From: Prevotella sp.
GTDB lineage: Bacteria > Bacteroidota > Bacteroidia > Bacteroidales > Bacteroidaceae
Length of the DNA stretch: 64,000 nucleotides
Direction: 5' to 3'
Assembly: GCA_018053665.1 (NCBI GenBank)
Contig: JAGPKZ010000004.1
Location: 1,463-65,462 of the forward strand
Under the pieces are notes generated by a model that was given only the letters and a program-made list of their open reading frames with translations, was not told the origin of the DNA and did not search any database. The position numbers were made by a program, and so were the translations under genes. Positions 13,030-40,719 of the stretch are shown here, piece by piece; position 1 is the first letter of the stretch, and every line of letters begins with the position of its first letter.

Positions 13030-13833
13030 ATGCTGAAGTTTATCTCGTTCGGCAGTGGAAGTAGTGGCAATTGCTACTATTTATATACAGAAACTGACGG
13101 ATTACTTATTGATGCTGGAATAGGGGTGAGAACCCTGAAAAAGCATTTTAAGAATTATGGATTACAAATAACAAATGTACATCATTTGCTTATAACTCAT
13201 GACCATGCTGACCATATCAAATCAGTTGGCAGTATAAGTAATGATTATAGCGTCAGCGTGTATACCACTCACGCCGTACATAATGGAATTGAGAATAATT
13301 ACTGCGTTAGAAAAAAAATAAACAATGGCTGTGTAAAAGTCATTGAAAAAGATCAGACTTTCCAACTTGGAGATTTCAAAGTAACACCTTTTGAAGTTCC
13401 TCATGATAGCACTGATAACGTAGGATATAAGATTGAAAACAACGGAATAACATTCGTTTTGATGACTGATATCGGACATATAACTGATGATATGCATAAA
13501 TATATCAGTGAAGCAAATTATCTTGTTATAGAAGCAAACCATGATGAGGAAATGCTGATTAACGGACCATACCCAGAACATCTTAAGATAAGAATTTCTG
13601 GACCAAACGGTCACTTGAGCAATTCTGAATGCGGTAATGCATTAGCAGAATATGCAACTCCAGAACTGAAACATGTTTGGCTATGCCATTTAAGCGAAGA
13701 AAACAATCATCCTGTATTAGCACAAAAGACGATTGAAACCACTCTTAGAGCTCATGGAATTGTAGCTGGAGTAGACTTTAAATTGGAAGTACTTAAACGC
13801 AAGATTCCAAGTGAGATTTATAATCTCATTTAG
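13030..13833 (+). CDS. MBL-fold metallo-hydrolase (YycJ/WalJ-like)
   Basis: SGSSGNC, THDHADH, EANHD, GHLSN and HLSEENN motifs. Confidence 0.92.
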   Translation: MLKFISFGSGSSGNCYYLYTETDGLLIDAGIGVRTLKKHFKNYGLQITNVHHLLITHDHADHIKSVGSISNDYSVSVYTTHAVHNGIENNYCVRKKINNGCVKVIEKDQTFQLGDFKVTPFEVPHDSTDNVGYKIENNGITFVLMTDIGHITDDMHKYISEANYLVIEANHDEEMLINGPYPEHLKIRISGPNGHLSNSECGNALAEYATPELKHVWLCHLSEENNHPVLAQKTIETTLRAHGIVAGVDFKLEVLKRKIPSEIYNLI

Positions 13834-16043
13834 AATGGCAATCCCACTGCAAAATGGAAATCAAAATCCCTGCTTAAATTCGGATGGAATATAGCATAAT
13901 GTTCTTTTTCGGTTTCATAAGCAGGGTTTATAGCTTTCATAGCCATGTCAAACCTTAGTATAAAATAGCTGAAATTTAATCGCAACCCCACTCCATAAGA
14001 CATGGCTATTTGCTTATAGAACTCGTTTATCTTGAATTGTCCTCCAGGTTGTTCCTCGTAATTACGAAGAGTCCATATATTGCCTGCATCAATGAAAGCT
14101 GCTCCGTCAAACTTCCAAAATAAAGAAGTTCTGTATTCTAAGTTCATGTCAAGCTTCATATCACCAGTCTGATTTATGAAGTCAATTCTTCCGTCAGTCC
14201 CTTTAAACGTTCCAGGTCCCAACTCTCTAATGCTCCATCCTCTCACACTATTTGCGCCACCTGAGAAATATCGCTTTTCAAATGGCAATATAGTACTGTT
14301 TCCATAAGGCCATGCAATACCAAATCCAAGGTGCATTGCCAAAGAGTTGTTGTTGTCAAATCTCAACAAGTGAGTAACGTCGAAGTCGAATTTAGTATAT
14401 TGTGCATAAGCTATATTAAACAATGTGTACTGTCCATTGCTGTTTTTCTTAAAGTCAAAGGCCCTTGACAGTCCGTTAAGGATGTTTCCAGCTGTCTCAA
14501 CATTTGCCCTTATCACATTTATACCATCATTGTAAGTGATTCCAGCACCCATCTTCATTATAAACAAATCTTCATAGTTGTATCTCAGTATGGCATTTCT
14601 ATTGCTCACACTATCAAGATAATCATGTTTGAAGGTAGAACTTATCCATGGCATATACACATAGTTAAGGTCCAGAAGATCTACACGATATGAAAGATGG
14701 TGACGAGGTTCGTTCCATTTGTATCGCCAAGCAGCGGAGAATATTCGTCTGTGGAATTCTGGACGGTTTTGCAGATTGTAATTCAACGACAATTCTGATG
14801 TTGCATTGCTGCGCTTCTTAAATGCATTTGACAGAAATGGAGCTAGAAATCTAGGGAACTGGAGTTTGCTCTCTATATTATATTCCTCATAATTCTGATT
14901 TTGATAGCCATCCAAACCTTTTATAGCTTCAAAAGCACCTCGCAACTGAATACTGAATAATTCAGAACCTCTAAAAAGATTTCGATTCTCCCACGTCAAA
15001 CTTGCAGCAGCACCTAAATCACCAGCGGTATTAGTGCCTTCTGGTTGAAACGACAACGTATTTGGCTTATTCGTACTCAACTGTATATCACAGTCCAAGA
15101 GTGTTGTATCAGGATGTTCACGAAAACTTATATTCGTAAATCTTACAGCCTGCAACCTTGCAAACTTATTATATGTATGTTGCAAGGCGCTATTGTTATA
15201 AGGTTTTCCTTCTTCCAATGCCGTTGTATAACGAAGTACACTGTTTCTAAGATGAATTCTTACCGTATCACCGCTAAGATAATTAATTTTATTTATCGTA
15301 TAACATGGATGAAGCGTGTCAGCAGAAGAACTACTAACACGATATGGTAAGAGATGTAATACTAAGTTTATGTCCTTACTGCTTCTTGCAGAATCGGCAC
15401 TGAATATTATAAAATCCTTATGAAATTTATAATATCCGTTATCAAGAAGAAAACTTGTAATATTCTTGCGTTCGGCATTCAACTCATCTACTGTAAACCT
15501 ACTTCCGCTGATAAGTCTTTGCTTAAAGGGACTTGGCATATTTTTATTGGCAAGCAATTTCGCTATTACGCTATCCTTGATATCATATTTTATCGAACTG
15601 ATATAATATGGCTCTCCGGGATGCAACATATAAATAGCTTTTATTTTATGTCCCCTTACCTTTGTCTTAATCTGTGCTGTGGCGTGCATATATCCCATGT
15701 TGCGCATAGCTGTAGTCAAATCATCAAGTGAACGATCTGCCATGAGTGTATCATATATTACTGGTTTTTCACCAATATTCTTTAATGTCCTATTTATCCA
15801 TTTTGCCGAATCTTTTCCTGCTAAAGAGTAAGTTCCAAGAGGTATTTTGAATATAGAAAACCATTTAGAATTTGCTTTCTGGCGAATATACGCCTGAAGC
15901 ATTGTTGGATCAAGTTCCCTATTGTCGGATTCCACTTTTACACTTTCAAGCAGATACTTTTGCTCAGGTATAAACTTAGAAGCATTACACGACATTAAAA
16001 GAACTATTGCCGATATATATATGTATAACTTAATTTTATTCAT
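13830..16043 (-). CDS. BamA/TamA (Omp85) family outer membrane lipoprotein, TamL-like
   Basis: Lipobox LMSC, POTRA-like N-half, YFSGGANSVRGW motif, C-terminal FAVGLPF. Confidence 0.9.
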   Translation of the reverse strand: MNKIKLYIYISAIVLLMSCNASKFIPEQKYLLESVKVESDNRELDPTMLQAYIRQKANSKWFSIFKIPLGTYSLAGKDSAKWINRTLKNIGEKPVIYDTLMADRSLDDLTTAMRNMGYMHATAQIKTKVRGHKIKAIYMLHPGEPYYISSIKYDIKDSVIAKLLANKNMPSPFKQRLISGSRFTVDELNAERKNITSFLLDNGYYKFHKDFIIFSADSARSSKDINLVLHLLPYRVSSSSADTLHPCYTINKINYLSGDTVRIHLRNSVLRYTTALEEGKPYNNSALQHTYNKFARLQAVRFTNISFREHPDTTLLDCDIQLSTNKPNTLSFQPEGTNTAGDLGAAASLTWENRNLFRGSELFSIQLRGAFEAIKGLDGYQNQNYEEYNIESKLQFPRFLAPFLSNAFKKRSNATSELSLNYNLQNRPEFHRRIFSAAWRYKWNEPRHHLSYRVDLLDLNYVYMPWISSTFKHDYLDSVSNRNAILRYNYEDLFIMKMGAGITYNDGINVIRANVETAGNILNGLSRAFDFKKNSNGQYTLFNIAYAQYTKFDFDVTHLLRFDNNNSLAMHLGFGIAWPYGNSTILPFEKRYFSGGANSVRGWSIRELGPGTFKGTDGRIDFINQTGDMKLDMNLEYRTSLFWKFDGAAFIDAGNIWTLRNYEEQPGGQFKINEFYKQIAMSYGVGLRLNFSYFILRFDMAMKAINPAYETEKEHYAIFHPNLSRDFDFHFAVGLPF

Positions 16044-16057
16044 TTATCATTATTTAC

Positions 16058-16166
16058 ATGCAAACAAAGGCAAATAAATCAAATGTTTTGCCATGTGCAA
16101 CCTTATCTTATGCAAAGATAGTGCAAGCAAAACACATTACAAAATAAAAAATGATTTTTATAGCTA
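16058..16166. repeat. Degenerate copy of a dispersed repeat (ATCTTRTGCAAAGATARTGYAAG...ACAAAATAAAA), also at 43568-43712
   Basis: 16105 ATCTTATGCAAAGATAGTGCAAG vs 43630 ATCTTGTGCAAAGATAATGTAAG; contains a minus-strand TATCTTTG -7 box. Confidence 0.5.
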
Positions 16167-16307
16167 ATTCTTAAGAATTTAACGTCTAAACTCTCTCATA
16201 AAAACCGTACTTCTTATTAATTTTCTACATATAGTCAACAAAAAGCCAAGCGTCTTATTAGGGTTTTAAATCAAGATGTAAAGACAGCAACTAGAAAAAG
16301 TTTTTTT

Positions 16308-16398
16308 AATGTCACTAATGTCACAATGTCACAAACCCTTTGTTTATAAGGGCTGAGCCAGTGACATTAAGTGACATTATCGGTGTAAAAGTGACATT
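16308..16398. repeat. Repeat module A: 3x AATGTCAC, core, 3x GTGACATT
   Basis: AATGTCAC at 16308, 16317, 16325; core AAACCCTTTGTTTATAAGGGCT; GTGACATT at 16361, 16371, 16391. Confidence 0.9.
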
Positions 16399-16545
16399 AT
16401 ACCCTAAAGTACACCTGTTTTTTGCGTTTTTTTCGCAATTATGCTATTTACATAATACGTATTTATGATGGGTTCTTCGTCAATTCAGGGGGTGATATTC
16501 TCAACAAACGTATTCCGACTAGAGAAAATTTGCGAAATAAGACAC

Positions 16546-16610
16546 AGTGATTAGGCCCTAATCACTATGCAGTTTACGAAGAAGTAGGAAGTGATTAGGG
16601 CCTAATCACT
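16546..16610. repeat. Doublet of 21-bp palindrome AGTGATTAGG(C/G)CCTAATCACT, 44-bp period
   Basis: Copies at 16546-16566 and 16590-16610. Confidence 0.95.
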
Positions 16611-16773
16611 ATGCGTTTCAATTTGCTTAATAATATTTTAAGTCATACGATCAAAAGTTTCCATTTCTATATGGGGGAAATTGTGCTTAAAGACAACCTT
16701 ACATTGTGATGATACAAAATCAGCTCAAATTACGCTCTATTTTACGTTTTATCGTTATAACGGCTATTAATTA

Positions 16774-16890
16774 CGTAGCTAGAACGTAGCTTACCGTAGC
16801 TAATATTTTTGTTTTTATTTTCAACAATGCCTGTAAACAAGGGACTTTCAAGCATGAACGTAGCTGCGTAGCTATTTATTAAAAAACGCT
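16774..16890 (+). repeat. Repeat module C: 3x CGTAGCT, core, 2x CGTAGCT, A-tract
   Basis: CGTAGCT at 16774, 16785, 16795, 16859, 16867; core AATGCCTGTAAACAAGGGACTTT. Confidence 0.85.
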
Positions 16891-17100
16891 TAGAGAGGAA
16901 TTCTGTAGTTAATCACATGTTGTATTATGACAATTGAAAGGAAATCAACAAGATGCGTTACTTCTTAAGGATATACTTACTGTAGTCCCTATTACCCCAA
17001 TACGTTTGCTTTATATTTTCGAACGAGGATGTTTACATTAAGGAAAGCCTGCTAGCATAATTTACGAAAAAGCGCAAAATATTGGTGTGATTTCAATTAT

Positions 17101-17203
17101 ATCGTCACCTTTATCCCAAGATCGTCACCGAATCATCACTCCGAAATGCCGATAAACAGGGGAAAAGTGATGAAGTTCGATTATTTCATCAAAAAAACTT
17201 TTT
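17101..17203 (+). repeat. Repeat module D: 3x ATC(G/A)TCAC, core, inverted copy, AAAAAAACTTTTT
   Basis: Repeats at 17101, 17121, 17132; core AAATGCCGATAAACAGGGGAAAA; GTGATGA at 17167. Confidence 0.85.
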
Positions 17204-17459
17204 GCTGTTAGCGTTGTTTTGGCGTTACCAAATATTATCCAATACTTTGACTTTGATCTTCAAGACATCATTCCATCAATCTAATTTCTTGAAAAAATCT
17301 ATTTTTATTCAAACTATACATCAAGAAATCATTACATTATTTATACTATTTATAGTCAGAATTTTAATGCAGAGAAATACTAAATATTACTCTGAGAATA
17401 AAAACATAACTAACAACAAAATAAAATACGAAGTTTTTTAATTTCTCAATATTAATTAT

Positions 17460-17467
17460 TACTTTTG
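17460..17467 (+). promoter_or_regulatory. -7 promoter box (TACTTTTG) for the TrmH methyltransferase
   Basis: TAnnTTTG 5 nt before the ATG at 17473. Confidence 0.6.
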
Positions 17468-17472
17468 CAAGT

Positions 17473-18231
17473 ATGATTAGCAAAGCTAAAATAAAATATA
17501 TCAAATCTCTTCAGCACAAGAAGATAAGAAACAGCGAAGGTGTATTTGTAGCTGAGGGTCACAAAGTTGTAGGTGACCTACTGACAAAATACCAAGCTAA
17601 AATTATTGTGGCTACAAGTGAATGGATTAAGACAAACAATAATATTAATTCTGACGAAATAATAGAAGTTACAGAAGACGAACTTTCACGAGTTAGTTTC
17701 TTGCAGCATCCTCAAATGGTACTTGCTATATTTCAATTCTTTGAATACGACACACCAATAATAAATGACAATGACGAGACCTTGTATCTTGCTCTTGATG
17801 GAGTGCAGGATCCTGGAAACCTAGGAACAATTATTCGCATTGCCGACTGGTTTGGCATTACAGATATTTATTGCAGCAATGACACTGCCGACATATATAA
17901 TCCAAAAGTTGTACAGGCAACAATGGGAAGTATTGCACGGGTGAAACTTCATTATACAGACCTAAGCAAGTTCATTGGCTCTCTCCCACCCAACTATCCT
18001 ATTTACGGTACGTTGCTAGAAGGAACCGATATTTATAAGGAGGAACTTTCAAAAAATGGTATAATCGTTATGGGAAATGAAGGAAACGGTATATCACCAG
18101 AAATCAGAAAGATGATTAATCGCAAACTTCTCATCCCTAATTATCCAATAGGCAGAGAAACGGCAGAATCACTTAACGTAGCAATTGCTACAGCCGTGAC
18201 ATGCGCTGAATTCAGACGTAGAATGATGTAA
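17473..18231 (+). CDS. TrmH/SpoU family RNA methyltransferase
   Basis: LDGVQDPGNLGTIIR, MGNEGNGIS and ESLNVAIA SPOUT motifs. Confidence 0.95.
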   Translation: MISKAKIKYIKSLQHKKIRNSEGVFVAEGHKVVGDLLTKYQAKIIVATSEWIKTNNNINSDEIIEVTEDELSRVSFLQHPQMVLAIFQFFEYDTPIINDNDETLYLALDGVQDPGNLGTIIRIADWFGITDIYCSNDTADIYNPKVVQATMGSIARVKLHYTDLSKFIGSLPPNYPIYGTLLEGTDIYKEELSKNGIIVMGNEGNGISPEIRKMINRKLLIPNYPIGRETAESLNVAIATAVTCAEFRRRMM

Positions 18232-39805: not shown

Positions 39806-40000
39806 ATTTATGTGCATAAAGACATTACCCACATGATATATTTTCTTGAAAAGATATCAAAAGAACTTTCAATAAAAATCAAGGTAATTAAAAGATTAAT
39901 ATTCAATAGAGCAAGTATAGAAATACTTAGATCCGAACCCATTTAGGGAGGATACTTTCCTTTCTAAATTTTAAAAGATTCCAGAAAAAAAGAAAAATGA

Positions 40001-40101
40001 CCTACATTATATACATTTTTTACTTAAACACTTATTAATCAGTAGTTTATCTTATGTATACTAGTGCTTTATCCTACATCTTTCCTACATGCTTCCTACA
40101 T
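40001..40101 (-). repeat. Repeat module E: CCTACAT repeats around core TAAACACTTATTAATCAGTAGTTTA
   Basis: CCTACAT at 40001, 40073, 40084, 40095 (last three 11 bp apart); TATACAT at 40010; ATGTATA at 40054. Confidence 0.85.
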
Positions 40102-40477
40102 TATACGCACGTATTTGTACTCAAAACGATGGCATTTTATCAAATCGCAATACGATAATTGCTTTTTTGGTTCCGCCATTATTTCGCATCTTTGGTTACA
40201 AAGCAAATCGCAGTGATATCTTTCATAGAAATTGCAAATATAGAAATATCTTTTCTTTTTGTAAATAAAATTAACAAACAAAACTGATTTATACAGCATT
40301 TTGATATGCCAACCTTTTCAGTAAAGGATTTCAGAAACTATAATGATTATCAATAACAGCATTAAAAAATATATAGTGCTTCAGTAAGTATAGCTAAAAT
40401 GTTTATAACCAATTCCAATTATAGTCAAAATGCATGAAGTACAACAAAAATAAAATCACCTTTTTCCGTGCGCCATT

Positions 40478-40544
40478 GAGTGATTAGGGCCTAATCACTC
40501 CGTAAAGCATGTAGGACAACCGAGTGATTAGGCCCTAATCACTC
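40478..40544. repeat. Doublet of palindrome GAGTGATTAGG(G/C)CCTAATCACTC, 44-bp period
   Basis: Copies at 40478-40500 and 40522-40544. Confidence 0.95.
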
Positions 40545-40719
40545 CCTAAAATGTATAAGAACAGACTAACCTACATAAGCTAACACGTTGTATAACAATA
40601 CGTTTGGCAAAAACATGTAGGAAATCGCATTAAAAACTCACAAAAAATATTTTTTTCAATACAGGAAGAGCTTGTTCTTGGTCGACATGTTGCATGTCAA
40701 CATCAAGTTAATAAAATTA

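Follow-up and report, generated by a model that had tools for sequence, protein, structure and literature searches.

The stretch of DNA considered here, which we call the window, comprises 64,000 nucleotides of a Prevotella sp. genome (GenBank assembly GCA_018053665.1, contig JAGPKZ010000004.1, positions 1,463 to 65,462 of the forward strand). Our subject is one intergenic gap within it, between a gene of the Omp85 family on the minus strand (13830-16043) and a gene for a SpoU/TrmH-type methylase on the plus strand (17473-18231). An open reading frame (ORF) scan of the gap found no frame of 60 amino acids (aa) or more, and the largest frames within 16295-17203 are two of 42 aa, with no others. 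What the gap does hold is three arms built of short, phased repeats (iterons), each arm with its own repeat word (AATGTCAC, CGTAGCT and TC(G/A)TCAC), together with one intact and two degenerate terminal repeats of the ISL3 transposon type and a doublet of palindromes (Table 1). We argue that the arms are probably the orphaned sites of primase-helicase cassettes, carried into the gap inside the shell of an unrelated transposon.

Three arms of three types in one gap

The two outer arms, 1 and 2, are mirror images of each other. When 16295-16450 is aligned globally with 17050-17203 in reverse complement, 103 positions over 154-156 nt are identical and the score is 42, to be compared with -14.1 +/- 5.9 (maximum 11) in 1000 dinucleotide-preserving shuffles (z = 9.4) and with scores of at most 5 among 1000 random segments of the window. 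A previous reading of the sequence alone had described these mirrored arms and set shuffled controls as their yardstick, and on both counts it was right: the similarity lies far above the controls, the terminal pair is exact, and the repeat words, spacings and cores were recovered when their positions were recomputed in both arms. It had also placed outer repeats on both arms, degenerate ones on the right. The three on the left stand, and the right arm keeps one degenerate copy only (GTGATGA, 17167). Where it went wrong was in taking the whole for a single element of 910 bp with two cognate arms. Between arms 1 and 2 lie a third arm and an intact transposon terminus, and the 910 bp are therefore a composite, not one unit.

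Table 1. Features of the Omp85-TrmH gap, in positions of the window
Feature	Position	Strand	Content and basis
Degenerate left shell	16245-16294	+	Remnant of ISL3-type terminal repeat (GCGTCTTATTAGGG, 16250-16263) and linker ending TAAAGACAGCAACTAG; weak alignment to the canonical terminal inverted repeat and linker
Arm 1 (type 1, intact)	16295-16450	+	A5GT7 tract, terminal AAAAAGTTTTTTT (16295-16307); three outer AATGTCAC at 16308, 16317, 16325; core CCCTTTGTTTATAAGGG (16336-16352), with hairpin CCCTT-TGTTTAT-AAGGG; three inverted inner GTGACATT at 16361, 16371, 16391 (spacing 10 and 20); inner segment
Remnant of canonical element interior (~20 nt)	16451-16470	+	Alignments to canonical copies and to the copy on contig C99; cut off by the next feature
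Intact ISL3-type terminal repeat and linker	16471-16525	+	GGTTCTTCGTCAATTCAGGGGG (16471-16492), one mismatch to the family terminus
Doublet of 21-bp palindromes	16546-16610	.	AGTGATTAGG[C/G]CCTAATCACT, 44-bp period; dispersed in the genome
Arm 3 (type 3, right-arm orientation)	16765-16900	-	CGTAGCT at 16774, 16785, 16795, 16859, 16867; core CCTGTAAACAAGG (16830-16842); terminal ATTTATTAAAAAACGC
Linker start after arm 3	16901-16919	-	As in the copy on contig C99; homology stops here
Little-repeated sequence (~130 nt)	16920-17049		
Arm 2 (type 2)	17050-17203	-	Inner TCGTCAC at 17102, 17122 and TCATCAC at 17133 (spacing 20 and 11); core CCGATAAACAGGGG (17149-17162); degenerate outer repeats; terminal AAAAAAACTTTTT (17191-17203)
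Right linker and degenerate right terminal repeat	17204-17263	-	GCTGTTAGCG... and CCAATACTTTGACTTTGATCTTC (17239-17261); weak alignment to canonical right ends

The pairing of the arms is clarified by a sister copy in the same genome (C99:2043-2770), which is 90% identical to the window over 16546-16918 and ends with arm 3 (90% identical to C99:2335-2707), a linker and a right ISL3 terminus. Since that copy ends properly with arm 3, arms 1 and 3 are the more natural pair. The terminus at 16471-16492 points rightward and starts a second miniature element, nested in the first or abutting it. Outward of each arm, homology to other copies extends for about 60 nt, and the ends of the window copy, apart from this one intact terminus, have decayed and are only weakly recognisable.

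The outer arms differ in preservation. Arm 1 is 83-96% identical to 20+ other arms in its own genome and folds, as single-stranded DNA, at -21.8 kcal/mol (z = -5.65). Arm 2 has lost its outer repeats, has little hairpin potential (z = -0.46) and has one close relative only (C78:16561-16699, 92% identical); a relic of a helicase stop region (GGTGTGA) persists at its inner end, at 17084-17090. No gene cognate to its word TCGTCAC was found at any locus examined, and none for arm 3 was detected in the genome of the window, so that arm 1 is the only one of the three with a cognate gene detected there.

The palindrome doublet (GTGATTAGG.CCTAATCAC) recurs on contigs C9, C38, C109, C123, C125, C143 and others of this genome, and again in the window itself, at 40480-40544. 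On C143 it lies directly downstream of a VapE paralogue, between TCCACCAC repeats (L060 2680-2746). It may be a component shared by the cassettes and read by something besides the type-specific iteron binder. A permissive Rfam scan of 15800-17700 found no RNA family; its only matches, of miRNA hairpins to the palindromes, were sub-threshold (19-28 bits, against gathering thresholds of 70-200).

Homology to the orthologous site in a related species (genome G283) stops at about 16233-16244, and that site holds a type-3 arm, in left-arm orientation, at the same position. In a complete sister genome (G060) the same gap measures 5.9 kb and contains genes for AbiH, an OLD-type ATPase/TOPRIM protein and a UvrD-like helicase (the latter two Gabija-like), a partial arm 1 and other repeats. 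Because both sites are occupied, the position was occupied before the species split and has been remodelled since. The defence genes of the sister genome (L073 916-4548, that is, G060:C1:9215-12847) make the gap a variable defence locus in this clade. The exact sequence of the window was recovered at 0.94-0.96 of sampled words in 14 DNA sequencing runs from wastewater, sediment and sludge (2018-2025), and three of these runs, from separate studies, gave identical junction contigs across 16429-16757, in a single arrangement. No empty or inverted allele was seen in the contigs of these three DNA runs and one RNA run, contigs being assemblies that drop rare variants. The RNA contigs cover parts of arm 1, which cannot show transcription, and the summed depth in the arm bins is 70-100 times that of the flanks, which is not a copy number.

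An ISL3-type shell around the sites of a primase-helicase cassette

Arm 1 belongs to a dispersed family. The genome of the window (G000, contigs labelled C) is a metagenome-assembled genome (MAG) of 2.2 Mb, 84.6% complete, and in it a BLAST search and an iterated nhmmer profile found 28 arm hits of 83-96% identity. Six inverted pairs stand 0.8-1.3 kb apart (on C13, C46, C48, C78, C118 and C144), and many further arms stand alone or are truncated, in several cases at the end of a contig; the other genomic copies that had been anticipated are thus abundant. In a sample of 400 other species of the genus, the family was found in only two: the sister genome G060 (3.5 Mb), with at least 8 full copies and at least 30 arms, and the MAG G283. 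According to public records, the clade is that of Segatella (Prevotella) paludivivens and Prevotella sp. JUN01a. The general layout of an arm is an A/T tract, two to three outer iterons of 7-8 bp spaced by 8-9 bp, a core of ~30-60 bp that often holds a small hairpin with a GTTTAT-like loop, and three inner iterons spaced by ~10 and 20 bp. In 51 type-1 arms from two species, iterons and core are conserved at 0.92-0.98 and the remainder at 0.86 (Mann-Whitney p = 3.5e-6, a test that overstates the effect because the copies are related).

Outside the arms, homology among copies stops at GGTTCTTCGTCAATTTAGGGGG, a sequence with 17 hits of at most three mismatches in the genome of the window. The canonical gene-less copies are 0.8-1.0 kb long, end in GGTTCTTCGTCAATTTAGGGG and are flanked by 8-bp target duplications, as revealed by filled and empty sites. 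The sister genome, whose flanking genes are ~88% identical to those of the window's genome, gives clean pairs of this kind: at one locus (L079, compared with C36) the insert runs exactly from GGTTCTTCG to CTAAGAGCC and AAAAATAA is duplicated, and at another (L076, compared with C100) AATTTATT is duplicated. The empty-site alleles expected in relatives therefore exist. The smallest case is an element of 49 bp (C90:8670) that contains little beyond the two termini, with TTTTATTC on either side. The same terminus bounds elements of 1.84 kb in three other species (L140, G142:C31:1203-3044; L141, G407:C127:261-2106; L142, G289:C13:38977-40809). These apparently intact insertion sequences (ISs), with termini GGTTCTTCGTCAATTT[A/T/G]GGTG and hosts that lack the arm family, encode a protein of 562-582 aa with the domains Zn_ribbon_ISL3, HTH_Tnp_ISL3 and DDE_Tnp_ISL3, and are flanked by 8-bp duplications as well (GAAAAATC, GAAAGAAA). 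The sequence GGTTCTTCGTCAATTTAGG[G/T]G is found at the ends of the gene-less copies as well as of the elements that encode DDE_Tnp_ISL3, and since termini and 8-bp duplications are shared with an autonomous IS, the gene-less copies are ISL3-type miniature elements. Many hits to the terminus alone were seen in G064 and G407. Searches with PF01610 and with the G142 transposase had no hit in the genome of the window or in the complete sister genome and gave only unrelated ISL3 fragments in G283, so that in none of the three was an ISL3 transposase with this terminus found. We infer that the gene-less copies were spread by a transposase that has since been lost, or by one that visits. The arms are not the only freight of this shell: in the sister genome the same terminus is joined to other cargos (L104 9463-9483, L105, L106 873-2068 and L109), among them a recurrent ATATAGATACTTTATTGTTGCTAAATACAAC module and a gene-less element of 1.2 kb with AGCTACG repeats, which means that non-coding DNA of more than one kind has been picked up by the shell.

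The source of the arms is to be found elsewhere. In the sister genome an inverted pair of type-1 arms, 3.2 kb apart, encloses two genes (G060:1100209-1103376). The order is arm, a DUF6078 gene (150 aa, Cys-rich), palindromic iterons (GGGTAAT..ATTACCC), a gene for a protein of 710 aa (P0001) with the domains BT4734_N, VapE and DUF3874, and the inverted arm, in whose inner part the stop codon of the latter gene sits. The BT4734-like N-terminal domain belongs to the archaeo-eukaryotic primase-polymerase (AEP) family (PMC11724360). The genome of the window retains the end of such a cassette, a sequence for the C-terminal 228 aa of the protein, 95% identical and abutting an arm, at C144:80480-81280, in a locus syntenic with that of the sister genome and cut by the contig end. 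A primase-helicase of the VirE/VapE or D5 type had been expected beside intact copies, and this cassette provides it. What remains of the cassette in a canonical gene-less copy is the two arms, the palindromes at the centre, the sequence preceding the helicase gene and the final ~100 nt of that gene; the copies are internal-deletion derivatives of the cassette inside an ISL3 shell.

The limits of homology show the 3.2-kb cassette to be a discrete unit. Only these 3.2 kb (L095:2068-5274) are common to S. paludivivens DSM 17968 and JUN01a/G060, in different flanks; the homology begins 4-9 nt from the tip of the left arm (GCTACCAG) and extends 27-48 nt past the right arm. The sequences on either side of the cassette in S. 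paludivivens are not matched in the incomplete genome of the window and gave no empty site. In the sister genome the cassette stands directly beside a type I CRISPR-Cas operon (L067 7820-15019, that is, G060:C1:1092819-1100018) with Cas6 and Cas7 recognised by Pfam and ORFs of 648, 255 and 926 aa that have no family assigned, while genes for NTF2-fold immunity proteins flank the cassette on the opposite side. In S. paludivivens DSM 17968 this adjacency is not conserved.

The repeat words vary among cassettes. Other cassettes of Prevotellaceae, with helicases 42-48% identical overall to P0001, keep a DUF6078-like gene and flanking inverted arms, and their words differ: ATCTACCAC in L101 and L102, CTGCCAC in L103, ATTGCCAC in L100 and ATCTATCAC in L097. 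Within the sister genome, a VapE paralogue of 682 aa (L064) is flanked by CGTAGCT sets in the spacing 11/10/~63/8 that arm 3 shows at 16774-16867, and another (L065) by CCTACAT. A paralogue on C143 of the window's genome has 77% DNA identity to the latter, yet is flanked by TCCACCAC, and this pair (L060, G000:C143:551-2611; L065, G060:C1:1713801-1715873) possibly represents a recent switch of specificity. Such words bear out the sequence-only reading in its proposal of a non-autonomous, gene-less piece of DNA whose repeats match a protein family of diversifying specificity. The window contains a second gene-less island, at 39985-40656, with CCTACAT at 40001, 40073, 40084, 40095 and 40570 and ATGTAGG at 40509 and 40615, around the second palindrome doublet. 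Since CCTACAT flanks a VapE paralogue, these are orphan arms of a fourth type. Relatives of this island, ~0.8 kb long, lie at C123:11887-12780 and beside three solo type-1 arms in the sister genome (L087-L089). The latter genome also has a further VapE-bearing repeat in four copies (L059, L061, L062 and L063), ~95% identical over 2.6-3.5 kb, whose helicase is 31% identical to P0001.

Weighing the readings

The best explanation we can offer, with a probability of roughly two in three, is that the gap holds a decayed composite of ISL3-ended elements resembling miniature inverted-repeat transposable elements (MITEs), which carry orphan arms of primase-helicase cassettes, these arms being putative initiator-binding sites comparable to ori and crr, from which the satellite phage P4 replicates. 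That the arms would bind an initiator is suggested by their architecture and by their association with the cassettes. In a structural model, the C-terminal 150 residues of the helicase protein adopt a winged-helix topology (H-S-H-H-S-S) over DUF3874, with a pLDDT (model confidence) of 72-91 for residues 70-147. The winged-helix domain of the cognate initiator would bind the iterons on either side of the core, the helicase would be loaded head-to-head across the core and the AEP domain would prime, on the model of P4 alpha at ori and crr. Gene-less copies would be internal-deletion derivatives that keep every cis site of the cassette, and an ISL3 transposase acting in trans would have spread them before it went missing from the clade. 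As for the window copy, only arm 1 has a cognate gene detected in the genome, arm 2 is degenerate and the outer ends are decayed; therefore, this copy is probably immobile, and the resident initiator would at most be bound or titrated by it, or use it as a weak origin.

A number of observations weigh against this explanation. First, trans mobilisation is a historical inference, given that none of G000, G060 and G283 has such a transposase, and the cassette itself has no clear ISL3 ends. Second, in the window copy the outer terminal repeats are recognised by weak alignment only, and the iterons of arm 3 are in direct, not inverted, orientation. Third, the higher conservation of the iterons could partly reflect shared ancestry or gene conversion and not selection. 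Fourth, identity of the helicase or of DUF6078, taken domain by domain over 8-11 cassettes, does not track the repeat word, and this comparison did not single out the reader of the iterons (DUF3874, DUF6078 or another). Fifth, P0001 and P4 alpha have no pairwise similarity (BLASTP E = 0.3), and the analogy with P4 is therefore architectural only. Finally, the P4 origin-binding domain (1ka8) ranks 4th of 48,161 chains against the DUF3874 model (VIA-align; Z 6.7, root-mean-square deviation 3.1 A over 76 residues), but this match is tied with the winged helices of RFX, Fur and ORC, and values of Z below 8 are common and not specific; Foldseek gave the same model no match with E <= 0.001.

One could go further and regard the gene-less copies as dual hitch-hikers, i.e., origin-carrying miniature transposons that the resident primase-helicase replicates, as excised circles or in place, before or without reinsertion. 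We hold this to be rather unlikely. If it were true, a transposase acting in trans would be coupled to a replicase acting in trans, and one initiator gene would control ~30-50 dispersed chromosomal sites of initiation or titration, some of which border on variable defence loci.

The arms might instead be the transposition ends, as inverted repeats of ~160 bp, of a self-mobilising primase-helicase cassette that would be a transposon of a new kind, with gene-less copies as deletion derivatives moved by the cassette proteins and an ISL3 shell that is secondary. The different flanks of the 3.2-kb unit in S. paludivivens and in JUN01a/G060, and the edge of homology near the arm tip, are what such a cassette would produce; distant cassettes (those with 42-48% helicase identity) sit among unrelated housekeeping genes with no conserved integrase, and the deletion derivatives do retain both ends. 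However, all the clean boundaries between filled and empty sites are ISL3-type termini with 8-bp duplications, not arm tips. Moreover, no convincing target duplication was found at the cassette ends in L101-L103, no nuclease or integrase domain was detected in either cassette protein, and the right boundary, lying 27-48 nt outside the arm, is asymmetric. Taken together, this makes the arms quite unlikely as transposition ends.

We find it very unlikely that the arms are operator or titration sites through which the cassette proteins autoregulate transcription or are sequestered, the dispersed copies being mere sinks or irrelevant. The position of the left arm of the cassette, directly upstream of DUF6078, with a Bacteroidetes-type -33 TTTG / -7 TACCTTTG (recognised by eye) at or just beyond its inner end, would suit an operator, and so would the decayed ends and degenerate arm 2 of the window copy. 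The top fold matches of DUF6078 are helix-turn-helix repressors, all of them non-significant: its model has a mean pLDDT of 66.6, is poor in the Cys-rich N-terminal half, and had nothing with E < 0.65 in a Foldseek search of the PDB. But it is hard to see what an operator would do past the helicase stop codon, where the second arm lies, and iterons converging around a core hairpin match the geometry of helicase loading in P4. Lastly, although a core with flanking arm repeats in inverted pairs ~0.8 kb apart, and a 270-aa tyrosine recombinase gene just outside the right arm of one distant cassette (L100), recall the att-like sites that the sequence-only reading had envisaged, or the inverted repeats of an invertible segment, it is scarcely credible that the arms serve a site-specific recombinase, because no recombinase or integrase gene is present in the gap or near the type-1 cassette, one arrangement across 16429-16757 is found in contigs of three independent metagenome studies, and the insertion boundaries, with their 8-bp duplications of the DDE transposase type, are ISL3 termini ~60 nt outside the arms.

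If the orphan arms inside ISL3-type shells are working origins or initiator-binding sites, then a transposon unrelated to them has strewn dozens of orphan sites for the replicase of a mobile element across the chromosome, and we would have before us a clear instance of a selfish element that takes over and propagates cis sites belonging to another. They would also provide a natural series of matched pairs of initiator and iteron, with at least five repeat words on one scaffold, in which the evolution of origin specificity in BT4734-like AEP primase-helicases can be studied. The family occurs widely in Bacteroidota and in defence loci, and, to our knowledge, its cis sites had not been described. 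The arm repeats explain many of the contig breaks in Segatella/Prevotella MAGs, and they mark variable loci, such as the AbiH and Gabija-like genes in the same gap of the sister species. What is new here is 1) the recognition of an ISL3 shell, of the 8-bp duplications around it and of its autonomous IS; 2) the comparison of the three arm types of the window with cassette paralogues; and 3) the direct comparison with P4. A literature search found no paper describing the arms and, on DUF6078, VapE iterons, ISL3 MITE origins and the P4 crr, nothing relevant except PMC11724360.

Comparison with known systems

The closest parallel is P4. In both systems, two cis regions flank a primase-helicase operon, one upstream and the other directly past the stop codon: in the P4 record, the alpha operon is preceded by ori, and crr comes directly after the alpha stop codon. 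Clusters of direct and inverted iterons on both sides of the primase-helicase gene are present in the cassettes, and the arms of the window are orphans of this arrangement, with no adjacent gene. The likeness extends to details: in both, iterons of 8 bp, some sets direct and others inverted, surround a T-rich core. The 120-bp crr repeat of P4 starts with AAAAAATTTTTTTT, has two TGTTCAC 9 bp apart, a T-rich core and inverted copies, and arm 1 starts with AAAAAGTTTTTTT, followed by three AATGTCAC at 9 and 8 bp, the core and then three copies in inverted orientation, spaced by 10 and 20 bp; both thus open with a run of A and a run of T and have outer iterons 9 bp apart, and TGTTCAC resembles the ATGTCAC of the arms. 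The order of domains in the initiator is also the same, a primase, an SF3-type NTPase and a C-terminal winged helix, the last predicted in our case. The differences are equally clear. P4 alpha has the domains Zn_Ribbon_Prim, Toprim, D5_N and Pox_D5, so its primase is Toprim/DnaG-like, unlike the BT4734-like AEP domain of the cassette; both proteins touch DUF5906, P0001 below the cut-off. The arms of a cassette are inverted copies of each other, whereas ori and crr are dissimilar. The cassette has 3.2 kb, two genes and none of the integrase, capsid-hijacking and cos functions, and, unlike P4, it has many gene-less copies scattered through the chromosome inside transposon shells. The cassette and its arms would seem to work like P4 without being a member of that family.

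The islands SaPI and PICI (Staphylococcus aureus pathogenicity islands and phage-inducible chromosomal islands) have a pri-rep-ori module in which an iteron origin is specific to the helicase encoded by the island, and this specificity diversifies between islands. The cassettes would share with them an iteron-type origin next to a primase or initiator helicase, and the diversifying specificity. The cassette lacks the context of an island (no integrase, packaging or interference genes), its arms form inverted pairs on both sides of the genes, and its orphan copies are dispersed.

The shell, in turn, compares with ISL3 ISs and their non-autonomous derivatives, MITEs or mobile insertion cassettes. 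Over ~19 nt, its terminal repeat GGTTCTTCGTCAATTTAGG has the same sequence as the end of an ISL3 IS (1.84 kb) found in the same genus, the target duplications are of 8 bp and AT-rich, and the copies are numerous and have no transposase. But the cargo is not derived from an IS: it comprises all the cis sites that a primase-helicase cassette has, both arms and the central palindromes. At 0.8-1.0 kb the copies are large for a MITE, and the cognate transposase was not found in the three genomes that carry the arm family. Finally, bacterial interspersed mosaic elements and repetitive extragenic palindromes (BIME/REP), Correia elements and BOX elements are likewise modular, gene-less, multicopy and intergenic, consist of palindromic units and break short-read assemblies. 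The elements described here differ from them in that their arms are far longer and internally phased, and their modules can be traced to a specific gene cassette and a specific IS family.

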